From positions 1 to 32,462 of the forward strand of contig CAYGHG010000017.1 of NCBI GenBank assembly GCA_964349515.1: 32,462 nucleotides of DNA, given 5' to 3'. Within the stretch, counting starts at the first letter, position 1. Each line of letters starts with the position of its first letter. Made by a program: the position numbers and the translations under genes. This document shows, in pieces, positions 7,777-23,744 of this stretch. Below the pieces are notes generated by a model. That model ran no database searches, was not told where the DNA came from, and saw only the letters and a list, made by a program, of their open reading frames with translations. This DNA comes from an uncultured Spirochaetia bacterium (GTDB taxonomy: Bacteria; Oederibacteriota; PGYV01; CAYGHG01).

Positions 7777-8151
7777 CTACTGCGCCCTCCCCCCTCCTAA
7801 CTGTGTAATGACCGACGTCAGCTTTGTTATGCCCCTTGCTTTTGTGAGAAACGCGGAAGCGCCTGTTTCCATCATTTTTCTTTCAAGCCAGGGTTCTTCG
7901 GACTGGGCGAAAATCACTACAGGTATTGCCGAGGTCGTGATGTTCTGTTTTAACTCCCTTAAAGTTTCTTCGCCGTCCATACCGGGCATTTCGTTATCAA
8001 GGAGTATCACGTCGGGCTTTTCTCTTCTTGCTTTTTCGATTCCGTCAACTGCGTTAGTAGCCGGCACAAGTTCAAGCCCCGGAATGTGCCGTAAGTAGAT
8101 TGAAACCATCCTGATCAGCATAGGTGAGTCGTCAATGTAGAGTACCTTCAT
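7777..8151 (-). CDS. Single-domain CheY-like response regulator (receiver domain only).
   Basis: Start set at MKVLYIDDS, preceded by GGAGGGGG. The track's longer ORF has no RBS. It has the receiver hallmarks DD, the phospho-acceptor D in ILLDNEMPGMDG, T and K. Confidence 0.85.
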   Translation of the reverse strand: MKVLYIDDSPMLIRMVSIYLRHIPGLELVPATNAVDGIEKARREKPDVILLDNEMPGMDGEETLRELKQNITTSAIPVVIFAQSEEPWLERKMMETGASAFLTKARGITKLTSVITQLGGGRAQ

Positions 8152-12076: not shown

Positions 12077-12193
12077 TATCAGCTCCTTTTTTATTTGTGA
12101 CAATATATCATATTATCAGGTCAAAAAAACAGTAAAAATATTTGACAGTGTAATGCGGGTATACTAACATAGGTGAATAAGGAGCGTGAAGAG

Positions 12194-13135
12194 ATGAACT
12201 ATAAATACAAATATTCAGGGCTTTTTTTGAGTGCGGCGGTTTTTATAATATTCTTCAGTGCCGTATCGGTATATGCTGGCGGCGGGCCCGAACCGGTGAT
12301 TTTACAGCACGGCATGCAGGCGCCGGAGGCCGCAGCGCAGGGCCAAAAAAGTGAAGCCCCGGTGATAAAACCCGTGGCTGAAAAATACAGGCATCTTCTT
12401 GCTGAAATATCCGACATCAGAAACATTCCCGTAATTCACCTGGATGAAGCAAAAGCCCTGCTTGAAAGCGGCGAAGCTGTGTTCATAGACGCAAGGTCAA
12501 GGCAGGAGTATAATGCCTCGCATATACCGGGCTCGGAGTATATAGGAGCGGGGGATGCCCGCTATCGCATACCGTATCTTCGCGAAAAACTTGAGGGAAA
12601 GGTGCTGGTGCCTTACTGCCACGGCACGGCGTGCAGGCTCTCTGACAAGGTGGCGCAGAGTCTTTTTGACGCGGGCTACAGAAGGCTTGTAATTTTTAAC
12701 GGCGGATGGCCTGAATGGACACAGGCTTTTATGCCGGTTGAAAAGTATAATCCGCCTGAAACATACAGGTTCCTTGACGAGCCTGCGCCTTCAATAGCCT
12801 CAATAAGAAAAGTCAGCATTGAGCAGGCGCGGTATATTTTTGATAATGCACTGGCGCATTTTATGGATGCGGATGCAGAGGCAAAGTTTCATGATTTCAG
12901 GGTTCAGAATGCATACTCCATACCGCCCGAACGTTTCGACGAGAAAATGAGGGCTTATAACGGCATCTTTTTGAACGGCCCGGTTATTATATACGGCAGG
13001 GATATGTTCGGAATGAGGGCCTCTGAAGCGGCAAAAAGGCTGTATAGCGCGGGTTACAAGAGGGTGTTTTTAATGAAGGGGAGCCTTTCAAAGTGGGAAA
13101 AAGCGGGGCATCCGGTTTTTAAAAAAGCAAAGTAA
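12194..13135 (+). CDS. Exported/membrane-anchored tandem rhodanese-domain protein. Domain 1 has active-site loop CHGTACR (CX5R); domain 2 has no Cys.
   Basis: N-terminal hydrophobic anchor/signal. First rhodanese domain: FIDARSRQEY...VLVPYCHGTACRLSDKVAQ...GGWPEW. The second domain is degenerate. ATG at 12194 is preceded by AAGGAG. The track's 12173 start is a GTG inside the RBS. Confidence 0.8.
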   Translation: MNYKYKYSGLFLSAAVFIIFFSAVSVYAGGGPEPVILQHGMQAPEAAAQGQKSEAPVIKPVAEKYRHLLAEISDIRNIPVIHLDEAKALLESGEAVFIDARSRQEYNASHIPGSEYIGAGDARYRIPYLREKLEGKVLVPYCHGTACRLSDKVAQSLFDAGYRRLVIFNGGWPEWTQAFMPVEKYNPPETYRFLDEPAPSIASIRKVSIEQARYIFDNALAHFMDADAEAKFHDFRVQNAYSIPPERFDEKMRAYNGIFLNGPVIIYGRDMFGMRASEAAKRLYSAGYKRVFLMKGSLSKWEKAGHPVFKKAK

Positions 13136-13158
13136 ATCCCTCTATAAAACAATTCTGC

Positions 13159-13206
13159 TTGACTTTCTGATTGCGCCTGCTAATATATGCGTGTTAGCGC
13201 ATATAT
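13159..13206 (+). promoter_or_regulatory. Promoter (TTGACT, 16-nt spacer, TAATAT) with an overlapping palindromic operator ATATATGCG-TGTTAG-CGCATATAT. It lies upstream of the permease operon.
   Basis: 9-bp perfect inverted arms (13183-13191 / 13198-13206) with a 6-nt spacer TGTTAG. It closely resembles the arsR operator at 8390-8417 (TAATATAT outer half-sites, TGTT(C/A)G spacer). Confidence 0.5.
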
Positions 13207-18674: not shown

Positions 18675-19985
18675 ATGGGTAAAGCAAAGCCTTTGATGTC
18701 GATCGCGCGCAGTTATTTTGAGCAGGACCCGATAGCTGCCACACGGGCGCTGGAGGCCATGAGCGACGAAGACGTGATATCAGTGCTGCGCAGCCTTCCG
18801 CTGGCTGTTTCCATAGAGGCTTTCTGGCACATGAATGCCGCGAGAGCCGCAACTCTTCTGACATCGGTTTCGCCCATTTTGTTTGGCGAGATTGTTTCGC
18901 GCATGCATCCCAGGCAGGTGGCTGCAGTTTTTTTCAGCCTGCCGCAGGAAATGCGTCCAAAACTTCTTGAGGGGCTGTCTGATAAGAGCAGGGCTCAGGT
19001 AAAAGAATACCTTACGTTTCCCTTAAACAGCGCCGGGCGGATAATGTCCACTGAATTCATTTCGCTGCGCGGCGACCTGAAGGTTAAGGAAGCGGTAAGA
19101 AAAATCAGGCAGATGTCAAAAAAGAAAGTACCTTCATCATATATCTATGTTGTGGATGATTCGAATCATCTTATCGGGGTTATAAACATGCGCGATATGA
19201 TGCTTGCTTCCGGAAACCAGCTGCTATCGGAGGTGATGCATAAGGAGGTTTTTTCCGTCAATTCCTTTATGGACGGGGAAGAGGTGGCAAACCAGATGTC
19301 TGACCGCAGATTTTTTGCCGTGCCTGTGGTGGATGCGGAAAACAGGCTTCTGGGTATCGTACATTCGCAGACGCTGCTTGAGCATGTACAGGAAGGGGCG
19401 GCCGAAGACATTCAGAAAATGTTCGGTGCCGGCGGAGATGAGACTCCTTTTTCAACAGTGGCTTTTTCCGTAAAAAAAAGGCTGCCATGGCTCCATATAA
19501 ATCTTTTAACAGCATTCATGGCTGCTTTTGTTGTGTCGTTTTTTGAAGACATAATCGCAAAAGTTACCATACTGGCAGTTTTTCTTCCCGTGGTGGCCGG
19601 ACAGGGCGGAAACGCAGGAGCCCAGTCCCTTGCCGTGGTAATGCGAGGGCTTGTCATGAGGGAGATACCGAAAGAAAAAGCCGGAAAGATGATTTTAAAG
19701 GAAACCATGACCGGATTGGTGAACGGCATTATTATAGGCGCTGTAACTGCCGGTGTGGCCTATTTATGGCACGGGAACCCGTGGCTTGGCCTTGTAATAG
19801 GCCTTGCAATGGTTGCCACGCTTGTAATTGCAGGCCTGTCGGGAGCGGCAATACCCATGATAATGAAGGGGCTTGGTTTTGATCCCGCGCAGTCATCAAA
19901 CATAATACTGACCACCATAACTGATATTACGGGATTTTTTGCTTTTCTGGGGCTTGCGGTAGTGTTCAAAAATTTTCTTATCTGA
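18675..19985 (+). CDS. mgtE: Magnesium transporter MgtE (MgtE-N domain + tandem CBS + 5-TM channel).
   Basis: Two CBS motifs. Channel signature AGQGGNAGAQSLAVVMRGL and a C-terminal TM bundle. Confidence 0.9.
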   Translation: MGKAKPLMSIARSYFEQDPIAATRALEAMSDEDVISVLRSLPLAVSIEAFWHMNAARAATLLTSVSPILFGEIVSRMHPRQVAAVFFSLPQEMRPKLLEGLSDKSRAQVKEYLTFPLNSAGRIMSTEFISLRGDLKVKEAVRKIRQMSKKKVPSSYIYVVDDSNHLIGVINMRDMMLASGNQLLSEVMHKEVFSVNSFMDGEEVANQMSDRRFFAVPVVDAENRLLGIVHSQTLLEHVQEGAAEDIQKMFGAGGDETPFSTVAFSVKKRLPWLHINLLTAFMAAFVVSFFEDIIAKVTILAVFLPVVAGQGGNAGAQSLAVVMRGLVMREIPKEKAGKMILKETMTGLVNGIIIGAVTAGVAYLWHGNPWLGLVIGLAMVATLVIAGLSGAAIPMIMKGLGFDPAQSSNIILTTITDITGFFAFLGLAVVFKNFLI

Positions 19986-20114
19986 TTGTTTCGTAATCGA
20001 ACGCAGACGTACCATATTGAGACCCGCCTTGAGCAAATAATAGCAATAACAATTATTTTTTTGCGGCATAGTAATTGCTCTTACATTCACAAAAAATAAT
20101 AGGAGGCGGTAAAA

Positions 20115-22661
20115 ATGATAAATCCGGAAAAACTTACAATTAAGGCTCAGGAGGCATTGAACAGTGCGCATTCGATTGCTTCTGAAAATTCCAACCAGCA
20201 GATAATGCCTGTGCATGTGCTGTTGGCAATGCTGGGTGATGAGGCGGGATTGATAAGAGCAATAGCGGAAAAAGCCGGGGTTTCTTCCTCGAAACTTAAG
20301 GCTGCCGCTGAAAAGGAAGTGTCCGGGCTGCCAAAAGTATCCGGTACTGCTGAGGTTTACATTTCACAGGAGACTGCGGGTATGCTGGAGGCTGCTTCCA
20401 AAAAGGCAAAAGAGATGAAGGATGAGTTTATCAACACAGAACATTTTTTGCTTGCAATGTCAGAACTTGGCGCGGTTAAGGAAGCCGGTCTCTCGGCGAA
20501 ACTGCTGCTGAAAGCACTGGCTGAAATCCGGGGCGGGCATCAGGTAACGGACCGCTCGCCTGAGGAAAAATACAGGGCGCTGAAAAAATACGGCAAGGAT
20601 TTGGTGGAGCTCGCTGAGAATAACAAACTGGACCCTGTGATAGGCCGGGACGCTGAAATCCGGCGTGTCATGCAGGTGTTATCCAGGCGGACAAAGAACA
20701 ACCCTGTGTTAATCGGAGAGGCAGGGGTGGGAAAGACCGCGGTAGCGGAGGGCGTCGCGATACGAATTCACAAAGGGGATGTGCCGGATAACCTTAGAAA
20801 CAAAAGAATCATCGCGCTTGACATGGGCGCGCTGGTAGCCGGCGCAAAATTCAGGGGGGAGTTTGAAGAGCGGCTTAAAGCCGTGCTCAAGGAAGCATCG
20901 GATGCAGACGGAAAAATAATTCTGTTCATAGACGAAATGCACCTGCTGGTAGGCGCGGGAAAAACTGAGGGCGCGATGGATGCGGCAAATCTGCTGAAAC
21001 CCGCGCTGTCGCGCGGCGAGCTGCAGGCAATAGGCGCGACCACGCTTAATGAATACAGGCTTCACATAGAAAAAGATGCCGCACTTGAGCGGCGATTTCA
21101 GCCGGTGCTTGTGGCAGAGCCTTCTGTTGAAGACACCATTTCCATCCTGCGCGGTCTTAAAGAAAGATACGAAGTACACCACGGGGTCAAAATACTTGAT
21201 TCTGCGATTATCGCAGCCGCAAAACTTTCGTCGCGTTACATACAGGGCAGGTTCATGCCTGATAAGGCAATTGACCTGATAGACGAGGCAGCTTCAAAAC
21301 TCAAACTTGAGATAGGTTCAAAACCGTACGAAGTGGACGGCCTGGAAAGAGAAATAGCAAGGCTTGAAACAGAACGAGAGGGCATAAGGCAGGAAAAAAA
21401 CGAAAACAGAGGTTCTGCGAAGCTTAAAGAGATAGAAAAAGAGATATCGAACTTAAAAGGGGAAAAAGATGCCCTTACGGCACGCTGGCTGAAGGAAAAG
21501 GAAGCCATAGAAAAGGTAAGAAGCCTTAAGGGTGAAATAGAACAGCTGAAAGCAGACGGAGAAAGGCATGAGCGTGAGGGGGAGTATGAAAAAGCAGCCA
21601 GAATCAAATACGGCGCTCTTAATGAAAAGGAAAAACAGCTTGCAGAGTCTGAAAAACTGCTTTCTTAAAACGCGGGAGCATCAAGGCTGCTTCAGGAAGA
21701 GGTGACTCCGGAGGAAATAGCAGGCATAGTGTCGTCCTGGACGGGAATTCCTGTTTCGAAAATGCTGGAGGCTGAGAGTGAAAAACTGCTGCACATGGAA
21801 GACGAACTAAAAAAGCGCGTGGCCGGACAGGACAATGCCGTGGCAGTGATATCCAACGGAATCAGGCGCAGCAGGGCGGGCGTTGCAGACTCTTCAAGGC
21901 CGCTCGGCGTGTACATGTTTCTTGGGCCGACAGGCGTAGGAAAGACAGAACTTGCCAAGTCACTTGCGTCATTCCTTTTTGATGATGAAAACTCGCTCGT
22001 GCGCATTGACATGTCCGAGTACATGGAAAAGCACGAAGTCTCAAGGCTTGTAGGAGCGCCCCCGGGATACATAGGGTATGAGGAGGGCGGGCAGCTGACA
22101 GAAAAGGTAAGGCGCAAGCCCTACTCGGTGATACTGCTCGATGAGATCGAAAAGGCGCACCCTGATGTATTTAACATACTGCTTCAGGTATTTGACGACG
22201 GCAGGTTAACCGACGGACAGGGCAGGACCGTAAATTTCAGAAATTCAATAATCATAATGACCTCCAATATTGCCTCGCACCTTCTGGCTGAAAAAATAGC
22301 AGGCGAAGAAGAAATGGAATCAGAATTAAAGAAACACTTCCGGCCGGAGTTCTTAAACAGGATAGACGACATAATCCTGTTCAAACGCCTGGATCGTGCT
22401 GTGATGGAAGGCATAGTTGACATGAGGATGAGCGAGCTTAATGCCCGGCTCGCGGAGCGCGGCATAATGGTGGAGGCTGACGCAGAGGCTAAAAAGCTTC
22501 TTGCCGAAGAAGGCTACGATGAGGTCTATGGCGCAAGGCCGCTGCGTCGTGTAATTCAGCGCCAGGTAGAAAACAAACTCGCATCCCTGCTGCTCGCGGG
22601 GAAAGTAAAAGAAGGAACGAAACTTGTTCTGACCGTGAAAGAAGGCGTCTTGTCCTTTTAA
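20115..22661 (+). pseudogene. clpB: clpB (Hsp100 disaggregase) interrupted by a single in-frame TAA at 21666-21668. The two parts stay in the same frame.
   Basis: First ORF: Clp-N, NBD1 (Walker [10 protein letters not shown]; Walker B ILFIDEMH) and the coiled-coil M-domain. Second ORF continues in frame 0: [23 protein letters not shown]2 [15 protein letters not shown], sensor/arginine-finger GARPLRR. Combined length is about 848 aa, as for a full ClpB. The second part has no credible independent RBS. Confidence 0.8.
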
Positions 22662-22834
22662 CCCCCTTTCCCAAAGGGGGGCAGGGGGGATTTGACTTAA
22701 GCCATAAGCTATAAGCAGTAAGTTAAGTACAAGACAGGAGACAGAAGACAAAAGTTTTAAGACAAGAGACAGAAAATAAGCACAAAACAAACACCCCTCA
22801 CCCGGCCTCTCCCCTGAAAAAGGGGAGAGGGGCA
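22659..22834 (+). repeat. Structured intergenic element, copy 1. Layout: stop-codon-abutting hairpin (CCCCCTTT...AAAGGGGGG), CAGGGGGGATTTGACTTAAG, a purine-rich AAGACA/ATAAG repeat tract, CCCCTCACC, and a second hairpin (CCTCTCCCCT-GAAAA-AGGGGAGAGG).
   Basis: Direct comparison with 23742-23920 shows both terminal modules nearly identical, the same order and the same orientation. Hairpin loops differ while the stems are retained. Confidence 0.7.
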
Positions 22835-22907
22835 ATGAAAATAACATTTTCTTGTTTAAACTTCATTTTAGTAATATAATATTTGCACAAACCTAAAGGA
22901 GGTTTTT

Positions 22908-23744
22908 ATGAAAAAGATTCTTGTTTTGTTTTGCGTTTTGGTATTTGCATCTTCTCTTACCGCTTCGACGGAATCGCTGATCAACGCTGAAGGGAAGGAT
23001 TATAAAATATCTCTTTCAGCGGAGCTCGGGACTGTGTTTGTGGCTTCTCATAAGATACAGTTTGGGGAAACAGGGACTTTGTTTGATTATGTGGAAGACG
23101 GAAACCAGAATGTACTGTTTCCTTTTTCGCGCTACACTGCCGAACTCAGGCTTTTTGACAGGCACGCTGTAGTCTTTCTTTATCAGCCGCTGGAAGTTTT
23201 TACGGAAGCCATAGTTGACCGCGATGTTACGGTATATGACGTGACTTTCCTTGCCGGGACTCCTATGAAACTAAAATATGGATTTACTTTTTACAGGGCG
23301 AGCTATCTATACTACTTCATCAAAGAAAACAACATGGAACTGGGAGCGGGGCTTTCTCTTCAGATCCGCAATGCTTCCATATCATTTGCATCTGCTGACG
23401 GAGAACAGTTTGTAACCTCTCAGAATATAGGGCCCGTGCCTATTATCAAGCTTGCGGGCAAATACACCTTTGACAACGGAATATGGACCGCTCTGGAGGC
23501 TGACGGCTTTTACGCCAACAGCGAATTTTTTAACGGAGCATCGTTCCCGTTCGAGGGCGCGATATGGGACATTAGCGGCCGCGCCGGAATTGAACTTAAA
23601 AACGGCATCAAGCCCTTCATTAATGTAAGATTCCTGGCCGGAGGCGCAAAAGGCACATCGCGCTACGAAGACGCAGAAGGCGACGGTTTTGCCAACAACT
23701 GGCTGAGCACGCTCTCGCTGACGCTCGGGGTTGTTTTAGATTAA
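22908..23744 (+). CDS. Exported hypothetical protein (beta-rich, possible outer-membrane protein).
   Basis: Strong RBS AAAGGAGG. Signal peptide MKKILVLFCVLVFASSLTAS. Alternating amphipathic composition. I recognise no family motif. Confidence 0.6.
   Translation: MKKILVLFCVLVFASSLTASTESLINAEGKDYKISLSAELGTVFVASHKIQFGETGTLFDYVEDGNQNVLFPFSRYTAELRLFDRHAVVFLYQPLEVFTEAIVDRDVTVYDVTFLAGTPMKLKYGFTFYRASYLYYFIKENNMELGAGLSLQIRNASISFASADGEQFVTSQNIGPVPIIKLAGKYTFDNGIWTALEADGFYANSEFFNGASFPFEGAIWDISGRAGIELKNGIKPFINVRFLAGGAKGTSRYEDAEGDGFANNWLSTLSLTLGVVLD

Follow-up and report, generated by a model that had tools for sequence, protein, structure and literature searches.

A premature ochre codon in the clpB gene of an uncultured Spirochaetia bacterium, most likely a recent nonsense mutation

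What does a cell make of a ClpB disaggregase gene that is cut in two by a single in-frame stop codon, and is such a stop real in the first place? The question is raised by the clpB gene in a stretch of 32,462 nt from an uncultured Spirochaetia bacterium (contig CAYGHG010000017.1; hereafter the window, whose numbering is used throughout). In this gene a TAA codon at 21666–21668 lies in frame with the ATG at 20115, from which the clpB frame is counted. We find that the stop is most likely genuine, a nonsense mutation that arose recently, and in this lineage only, in an otherwise ordinary clpB. Neither a two-gene arrangement shaped by evolution nor a recoding device is a good description of the locus.

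The interrupted frame and its ancestral codon

The 5′ open reading frame (ORF; 20115–21668, + strand) consists of 517 codons and the premature TAA, and is preceded by the Shine-Dalgarno sequence AGGAGG (20101–20106, + strand), 8 nt 5′ of the ATG. The local sequence at the stop reads CTG CTT TCT TAA AAC GCG GGA GCA. The same frame then remains open from 21669 to a TAA at 22659–22661, a run of 330 codons with neither a second stop nor a frameshift. The original prediction described a 517-aa and a 319-aa ORF that share one frame, are parted only by this TAA, and together have the length of an intact ClpB. The sequence and the ORF check agree with this description: the reconstructed gene has 848 codons (517 + 1 + 330), and homologues have 850–870 aa. 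The 5′ ORF has a predicted product of 56.9 kDa with the N-domain, nucleotide-binding domain 1 (NBD1) and the complete M-domain coiled coil. The 3′ ORF, counted from a GTG (21702–22661, + strand; 319 aa, 35.6 kDa), covers nucleotide-binding domain 2 (NBD2) and the D2-small domain, its GTG encoding the conserved Val530. Between the stop and this first in-frame start lie eleven orphaned loop codons (21669–21701, + strand), which are untranslated unless the stop is read through.

Both halves carry the expected ClpB features. Pfam identifies Clp_N, AAA and AAA_lid_9 in the 517-aa ORF, and AAA_2 and ClpB_D2-small in the 3′ ORF. All catalytic motifs (Walker, pore-loop, arginine-finger, and sensor) are intact: in NBD1, Walker A GEAGVGKT at residue 201, Walker B ILFIDE at 269 and ERRF at 325; in NBD2, Walker A GPTGVGKT at 604, the pore loop GYIGY at 651, Walker B VILLDE at 672 and the sensor-2 motif GARPL at 806. 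Against TIGR03346, the ClpB equivalog model of 853 positions, the 5′ ORF covers positions 1–513 and the 3′ ORF positions 529–852. Their scores (698 and 520.7, respectively) are both below the cut-off of 1232.1, whereas the intact protein of a sister species, introduced below, scores 1244.1. Alignments to solved ClpB structures (1QVR, 4D2Q, 6DJU) continue unbroken through the M-domain and across the stop; together with the complementary TIGR03346 halves, they bear out the earlier statement that ClpB homology crosses this codon. The tyrosine of the motif-2 YG (E. coli Y503) is kept in the M-domain alignment. Judged from sequence and model, the window gene appears to have the coiled-coil M-domain inserted in AAA-1 that sets ClpB/Hsp104 apart from ClpA/ClpX. 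By its domain content, the locus reads as a clpB gene, yet neither of its predicted products would be a complete ClpB.

The ancestral state of the codon is visible in a close relative. The 90% cluster of the N-terminal half contains an intact ClpB of 848 aa (P0122), which occurs on 21 contigs from many samples. The gene order around it is the same as in the window (DsbD-rhodanese-MauE-MgtE-ClpB-278aa-986aa). Since DNA identity to the window is 74–93% over the region and ~93% in clpB, we take the P0122 loci to represent a syntenic sister species, in which the Shine-Dalgarno sequence of clpB is identical. The original prediction had proposed a comparison of orthologs at the stop codon. This codon is GAA (Glu) in six of six fetched sister loci, in the context CTT TCT GAA AAC GCG. 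Because all of these loci read GAA, the TAA of the window is derived, through a single G-to-T transversion at 21666 (E518*). Among the outgroup ClpBs, column 518 holds E, Q, A or S, and the surrounding stretch varies in length. The stop aligns to E509 of Thermus thermophilus ClpB, and in E. coli ClpB to a variable-length loop or insertion after E520. The closest ClpB outside the lineage (P0001) is 69% identical, and the nearest named relatives by ClpB are Goldbacteria metagenome-assembled genomes (MAGs), at 62%. The split is confined to the clonal lineage of the window: the sister and the 119 other homologues listed are single ORFs, and the conservation across diverged relatives that marks an evolved split gene is absent.

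We compared substitution rates between the window and the sister by the Nei-Gojobori method. Codons 1–517 have a synonymous divergence (dS) of 0.186 and a nonsynonymous divergence (dN) of 0.0102 (dN/dS 0.055), and codons 519–848 have a dS of 0.442 and a dN of 0.0328 (dN/dS 0.074). The 13 flanking-gene comparisons with usable dS span a dN/dS of 0.02–0.13. Of the two signs of a pseudogene, one is present, a lesion that disables the gene where the orthologue is intact (GAA to TAA at codon 518); the other, relaxed constraint in the form of raised dN/dS, extra stops or frameshifts, is nowhere seen in clpB. When the 27 amino-acid differences are polarised with 60 outgroup ClpBs, the changes 5′ of the stop fall three times in the window and five times in the sister (one ambiguous), and those 3′ of it seven and nine times (two ambiguous). 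Across the 304 columns with conservation of 95% or more, K228R and I724L are the only departures peculiar to the window. The greater amino-acid divergence of the C-terminal half (5.5% vs 1.7%) might be taken for relaxed selection; we reject this reading, as dS is also higher there, dN/dS is alike in the two halves, and the changes are spread evenly over the two lineages. The higher dS arises because the last ~450 nt of clpB belong to a more divergent mosaic block, with 79–86% identity to the sister compared with 93–98% over the first 2.1 kb.

Around the stop, nothing has decayed or adapted: a single synonymous GCA/GCC change is all that separates the window from the intact sister between the stop and a point past the GTG. 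The recent nonsense mutation that was among the earlier options is supported both by the sister's GAA and by this lack of decay 3′ of the stop. Neutral evolution over a full branch would bring ~170 changes to the 3′ part (~757 nonsynonymous sites at ~0.22 dS per branch), whereas the excess seen is of a few changes at most. We estimate from these figures that neutral evolution of the 3′ part, if there was any, would have taken up less than ~5% of the window branch, counted from its divergence from the sister. It would follow that the lesion arose recently or that selection still acts on both halves. The dN/dS ratio does not separate the two, because nearly all of the divergence could predate the mutation.

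Translation of the NBD2 half and the case for two pieces

The course of events that we favor can be outlined as follows. In an ordinary gene for a ClpB disaggregase, a G-to-T change at 21666 would have replaced the Glu518 codon GAA by the stop TAA. Ribosomes loaded at the strong clpB Shine-Dalgarno sequence would stop at codon 518 and yield a 57-kDa fragment of N-domain, NBD1 and M-domain. The part encoding NBD2 and D2-small would receive little or no translation. Because this part lacks its own ribosome-binding site and its first start is 33 nt past the stop, we consider it moderately probable that clpB here is a loss-of-function allele of recent origin, or a (strongly) hypomorphic one: a pseudogene too young for decay. 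It is plausible that the organism has no functional ClpB.

The signals for initiation differ greatly between the two halves. Genes in the window typically have a strong AGGAGG-type Shine-Dalgarno sequence, and the clpB start forms the second strongest anti-Shine-Dalgarno duplex among them (−13.0 kcal/mol). The GTG at 21702, the first in-frame start after the stop, reaches only −4.3 kcal/mol, which is weaker than 72% of window genes. This is the level of the background, since pairing is as strong or stronger at 45% of the NTG triplets of the + strand; the earlier remark that the 3′ part has no convincing ribosome-binding site is thus borne out. The GTG also sits in the loop of a weak hairpin. 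Its codon is readily accounted for by the protein: GAA-GAG-GTG encodes the conserved EEV of ClpB, and the valine codon is GTG in 27 of 80 other ClpB genes. An in-frame CTG (21687–21689, + strand), with GGGAG (21674–21678) 8 nt upstream and a duplex of −8.1 kcal/mol, is a possible near-cognate restart. CTG is, however, a poor initiator. In E. coli reporter pairs, termination-reinitiation fell by 40–80% at a spacing of 14 nt and by 80–100% at 38 nt (PMC10666635). As the spacing of 33 nt is close to that at which coupling in the reporters nearly vanishes, reinitiation at the GTG would be inefficient. By analogy with these reporters, we expect far less NBD2 fragment than N-terminal fragment, and perhaps none. 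The downstream cistron of an evolved split gene would have its own Shine-Dalgarno sequence and start, or would be coupled to the upstream stop by overlapping or adjoining it, and the sequence appears to offer neither. A promoter and terminator scan of 19900–23000 gave no match on the + strand, with counts at the level of shuffled sequence, and is hence uninformative.

The best-surviving alternative is that the 517-aa fragment and a 319-aa fragment, started at the GTG at 21702 or the CTG at 21687, assemble non-covalently into an active or partly active ClpB, so that the lesion is tolerated or nearly neutral. We regard this as somewhat unlikely, and the main reason to keep it in play is that the stop coincides with a loop in which cutting is tolerated. 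In the AlphaFold model of P0001 (mean pLDDT, the predicted local distance difference test, 81), long helices occupy residues 383–517, the last M-domain helix spans 492–517, residues 518–528 form a loop to which the eleven orphaned codons correspond, and the next helix begins at 532. Taken over to the window, this model would make for a structurally clean cut: the 5′ product would end directly after the complete M-domain, and a product started at Val530 would begin two residues before the next helix. The original prediction had placed the break exactly between the M-domain and NBD2. This is in essence correct, the last M-domain helix ending at residue 517. As AAA-1 is the module into which the M-domain is inserted (PMC4436881), what comes first after the loop, a helix in the model, may yet be part of AAA-1. 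The GTG start aligns to V521 of T. thermophilus ClpB, and a crystallised stand-alone NBD2 construct (4LJ4) starts at ~520. According to the passages that cite it in PMC7343390 and PMC4239642, Beinker et al. (2005, J Biol Chem 280:37965) reconstituted ClpB in trans from a fragment of N-terminal domain, NBD1 and M-domain and a fragment of NBD2.

Several observations weigh against a simple loss of function. The stop falls at the start of the single loop that follows the M-domain, as placed by the model, and the next in-frame start falls at its end; we estimate that a random nonsense mutation would strike this loop of ~12 codons only ~1–2% of the time. ClpB cut near this point has, by the same citing passages, been reconstituted in trans, and by analogy the window protein might be. 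The absence of decay (the halves are free of further lesions, with dN/dS of ~0.06–0.07) is equally compatible with ongoing selection on both. At least three samples have the TAA allele as their consensus; it is hence not under strong counter-selection there. Finally, a second clpB or a suppressor tRNA may lie beyond the window.

Other observations argue against two working pieces. The split is not conserved and the sister is intact; the downstream start combines a Shine-Dalgarno pairing at random level, a GTG and a weak hairpin loop; its distance from the stop is one at which reinitiation nearly vanishes; and no nucleotide change has improved it since the split. The low dN/dS mainly reflects time before the mutation. 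The activity in trans, as far as the citing passages describe it, was obtained in vitro, with amounts of the fragments presumably set by the experimenter. We retain the young loss-of-function or hypomorphic allele as the preferred reading. The bolder proposal, that the window encodes a natural two-polypeptide Hsp100 in which the ochre codon is tolerated in a cuttable loop, a cryptic GTG (Val530) supplies NBD2 and the pieces reassemble non-covalently, is in our judgment unlikely.

The window gene can be compared with several known ClpB systems. Like canonical ClpB (TIGR03346; E. coli and T. thermophilus; 1QVR, 4D2Q), it has the domain order N-domain, AAA-1 with a four-helix M-domain, AAA-2 and D2-small; unlike canonical ClpB, it has TAA at codon 518, and thus no single polypeptide that holds both rings. 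Its break point is within ~10 residues of that in the engineered split of T. thermophilus ClpB into NBD1-M and NBD2 (4HSE, 4LJ4). In contrast to the engineered split, however, it arose through a natural point mutation, the 11 loop residues 519–529 would be absent from both pieces, and the second piece has no proper ribosome-binding site, its synthesis and assembly being only hypothetical. A second start inside clpB is familiar from ClpB-80. In E. coli this start is Val149, a conserved programmed site in the linker between N-domain and NBD1, and its product keeps both rings. The GTG of the window is likewise a second start inside clpB, at a valine codon, and would give an N-terminally shortened product, but it matters only given the premature stop, and its product would be one-ringed. 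A ClpB-80 or delta-N isoform from an internal clpB start is also described for M. tuberculosis (PMC6168691).

Young nonsense pseudogenes resemble the window gene in having one disabling substitution relative to an intact closest orthologue and no further decay. What is untypical here is the position, a structurally permissive inter-domain loop, and because the stop falls in such a loop, loss of function cannot be assumed. Among the papers listed in searches for naturally split ClpB or Hsp100 and for clpB pseudogenes, we saw no description of a split at this site.

For the most part, the significance of the locus is minor: it is a point lesion in a single lineage, and the chaperone gene concerned is well understood and would be labelled a pseudogene by annotation pipelines. 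It serves as a worked example in which an apparent "split Hsp100" in a MAG is most likely a real allele rather than an assembly error or recoding, and in which the ancestral codon is known. Because the cut coincides with a position at which ClpB worked in vitro as two chains, the TAA allele and its GAA sister form a natural pair that bears on the need in vivo for a covalent linkage of the AAA+ rings. Should the two pieces work together, the locus would parallel in vivo the split engineered in T. thermophilus ClpB, and would illustrate the evolution of a tandem-AAA+ machine into, or from, separate ring subunits.

Authenticity and decoding of the stop codon

Less probable by far than two working pieces is an artefact or a minority allele. 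Here GAA would be the true or dominant codon and TAA a consensus or systematic error, or else an assembled sub-population; we hold this to be very unlikely. An exact-sequence look-up returned the 517-aa protein on three further contigs with other sample accessions (ENA ERZ27247806, ENA ERZ27247803 and Logan ERR3094291). The ENA contigs come from two MEGAHIT-style assemblies and the Logan contig from a per-run assembly, and in all three, gene callers placed the 319-aa ORF beside the 517-aa ORF. Each is 100% identical to the window across 5.4–6.9 kb, TAA included, and the contig ends differ. Because the identical TAA occurs in assemblies with different ends, an assembler-specific artefact is ruled out and a sequencing error is unlikely. 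The same base is thus read in the NCBI contig, the two ENA assemblies and the Logan assembly, under three sample accessions, and little is left of the sequencing or assembly error that had been offered as one explanation. The change is, moreover, a substitution and not a homopolymer indel, and no other gene is damaged in the 32 kb. No intact allele of the window lineage occurs in a collection of 15 billion proteins, where the 90% cluster consists of the two halves and the sister protein; this too counts against an artefact. On the other side, every line of evidence consists of consensus assemblies. The four identical contigs may stem from one study and one clone, in which case their independence is incomplete; indeed, all copies of the window type are probably one clone, from one study. 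Among JGI metagenome contigs, a 36-mer across the junction, with the stop base and one variable base left open, found no match.

We give scarcely any credence to the last alternative, that the TAA is decoded, through a suppressor tRNA, a leaky context or reassignment, to produce a useful full-length ClpB. It has in its favor a perfectly continuous frame and the place of the residue in a variable loop, in which the choice of amino acid would not matter. The usage of stop codons in the window speaks otherwise. The ~31 non-overlapping ORFs end in TAA 15 times (the premature one included), in TGA 12 times and in TAG four times, so that TAA is the commonest stop and the terminator of 14 other ORFs. 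All genes that can be compared with the sister locus are uninterrupted, and nowhere else in the 32 kb is an ORF interrupted or crossed by an in-frame TAA. An alternative genetic code in which TAA is reassigned was considered and rejected on these same grounds. Both release factors recognise UAA, which leaks least among the bacterial stops. The stop is not conserved, the sister having GAA. A tRNA scan of the window found no tRNA gene, an Rfam search of the window matched no family, and the predicted RNA fold of 21630–21760, which takes in the sequence 3′ of the stop, is no better than that of shuffled sequence (z = +0.76). The programmed read-through suggested by the original prediction is accordingly unsupported.

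Lesions in other clpB genes and the surroundings of the locus

Apparent lesions of clpB are not rare in MAGs. We surveyed 81 clpB loci: that of P0001, and 80 from GTDB species representatives, which are the loci with 51–57% identity among the matches listed for conserved ClpB peptides. The gene is intact in 67; in 12 it is cut by a contig end or its alignment ends slightly before the C-terminus; a frameshift is present in one and an in-frame TAA in another, which amounts to ~2.5% (2/81) with an apparent lesion. The in-frame TAA occurs at nt 1086 of JAPUKU010000178.1 (Acidobacteria MAG KW1-S15_279), where it replaces the tyrosine of EEKYxAL (window residue 153), near the boundary of the N-domain and NBD1. 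Both in-frame stops seen in clpB are thus close to domain boundaries, an anecdotal observation at n = 2. The apparent frameshift lies at about nt 8085 of CAVPZX010000002.1 (Nitrospirota MAG MFD03726), near residue 692. Two tblastn pieces abut there in different frames, through either a real lesion or an assembly indel.

The 129 nt upstream of clpB (19986–20114) are ~90% identical to the sister, including the AGGAGG and the stretch CCTTGAG...TTGCGGCATAG. Within them, a scan with the sigma-70 consensus found no promoter on the + strand, and no CIRCE-like inverted repeat was seen by eye.

Synonymous divergence between the window (9000–31500) and the sister locus L085 is strongly mosaic. It is ~0.19 in the first 2.1 kb of clpB and ~0.96 in its last 290 nt; mgtE and the 986-aa gene have values of 0.38–0.44; and arsP, dsbD, the GT4 gene, the OEP gene and others are above 1.3 or saturated. 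Because divergence varies along the region in this way, it points to recombination between the window and sister lineages, with a putative breakpoint near clpB codon 700.

Two differences in gene content accompany this pattern. Downstream of clpB, the sister (L085, 12548–15539) has two tandem 278-aa paralogues that match no Pfam family, with a 119-aa ORF between them, and the window (22662–23744) has a single 278-aa copy. This copy is closer to the distal sister copy (95.7% amino-acid identity, dS 0.40) than to the proximal one (87.4%, dS 1.55), which suggests either that tandem copies in the window lineage were reduced to one by a deletion between them or that the sister duplicated the gene, in both cases directly beside the 3′ end of clpB. 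The second difference lies upstream, in a cluster of thiol/arsenic-type genes (SBF, LMWPc, ArsP, thioredoxins, DsbD, rhodanese, MauE). Window positions 12078–13177 hold a 320-aa double-rhodanese ORF (12173–13135) without a counterpart in the sister, whose locus L085 joins the equivalents of 12077 and 13178 with only ~100 nt between. From this comparison, the segment appears to be a lineage-specific insertion or deletion within the cluster.

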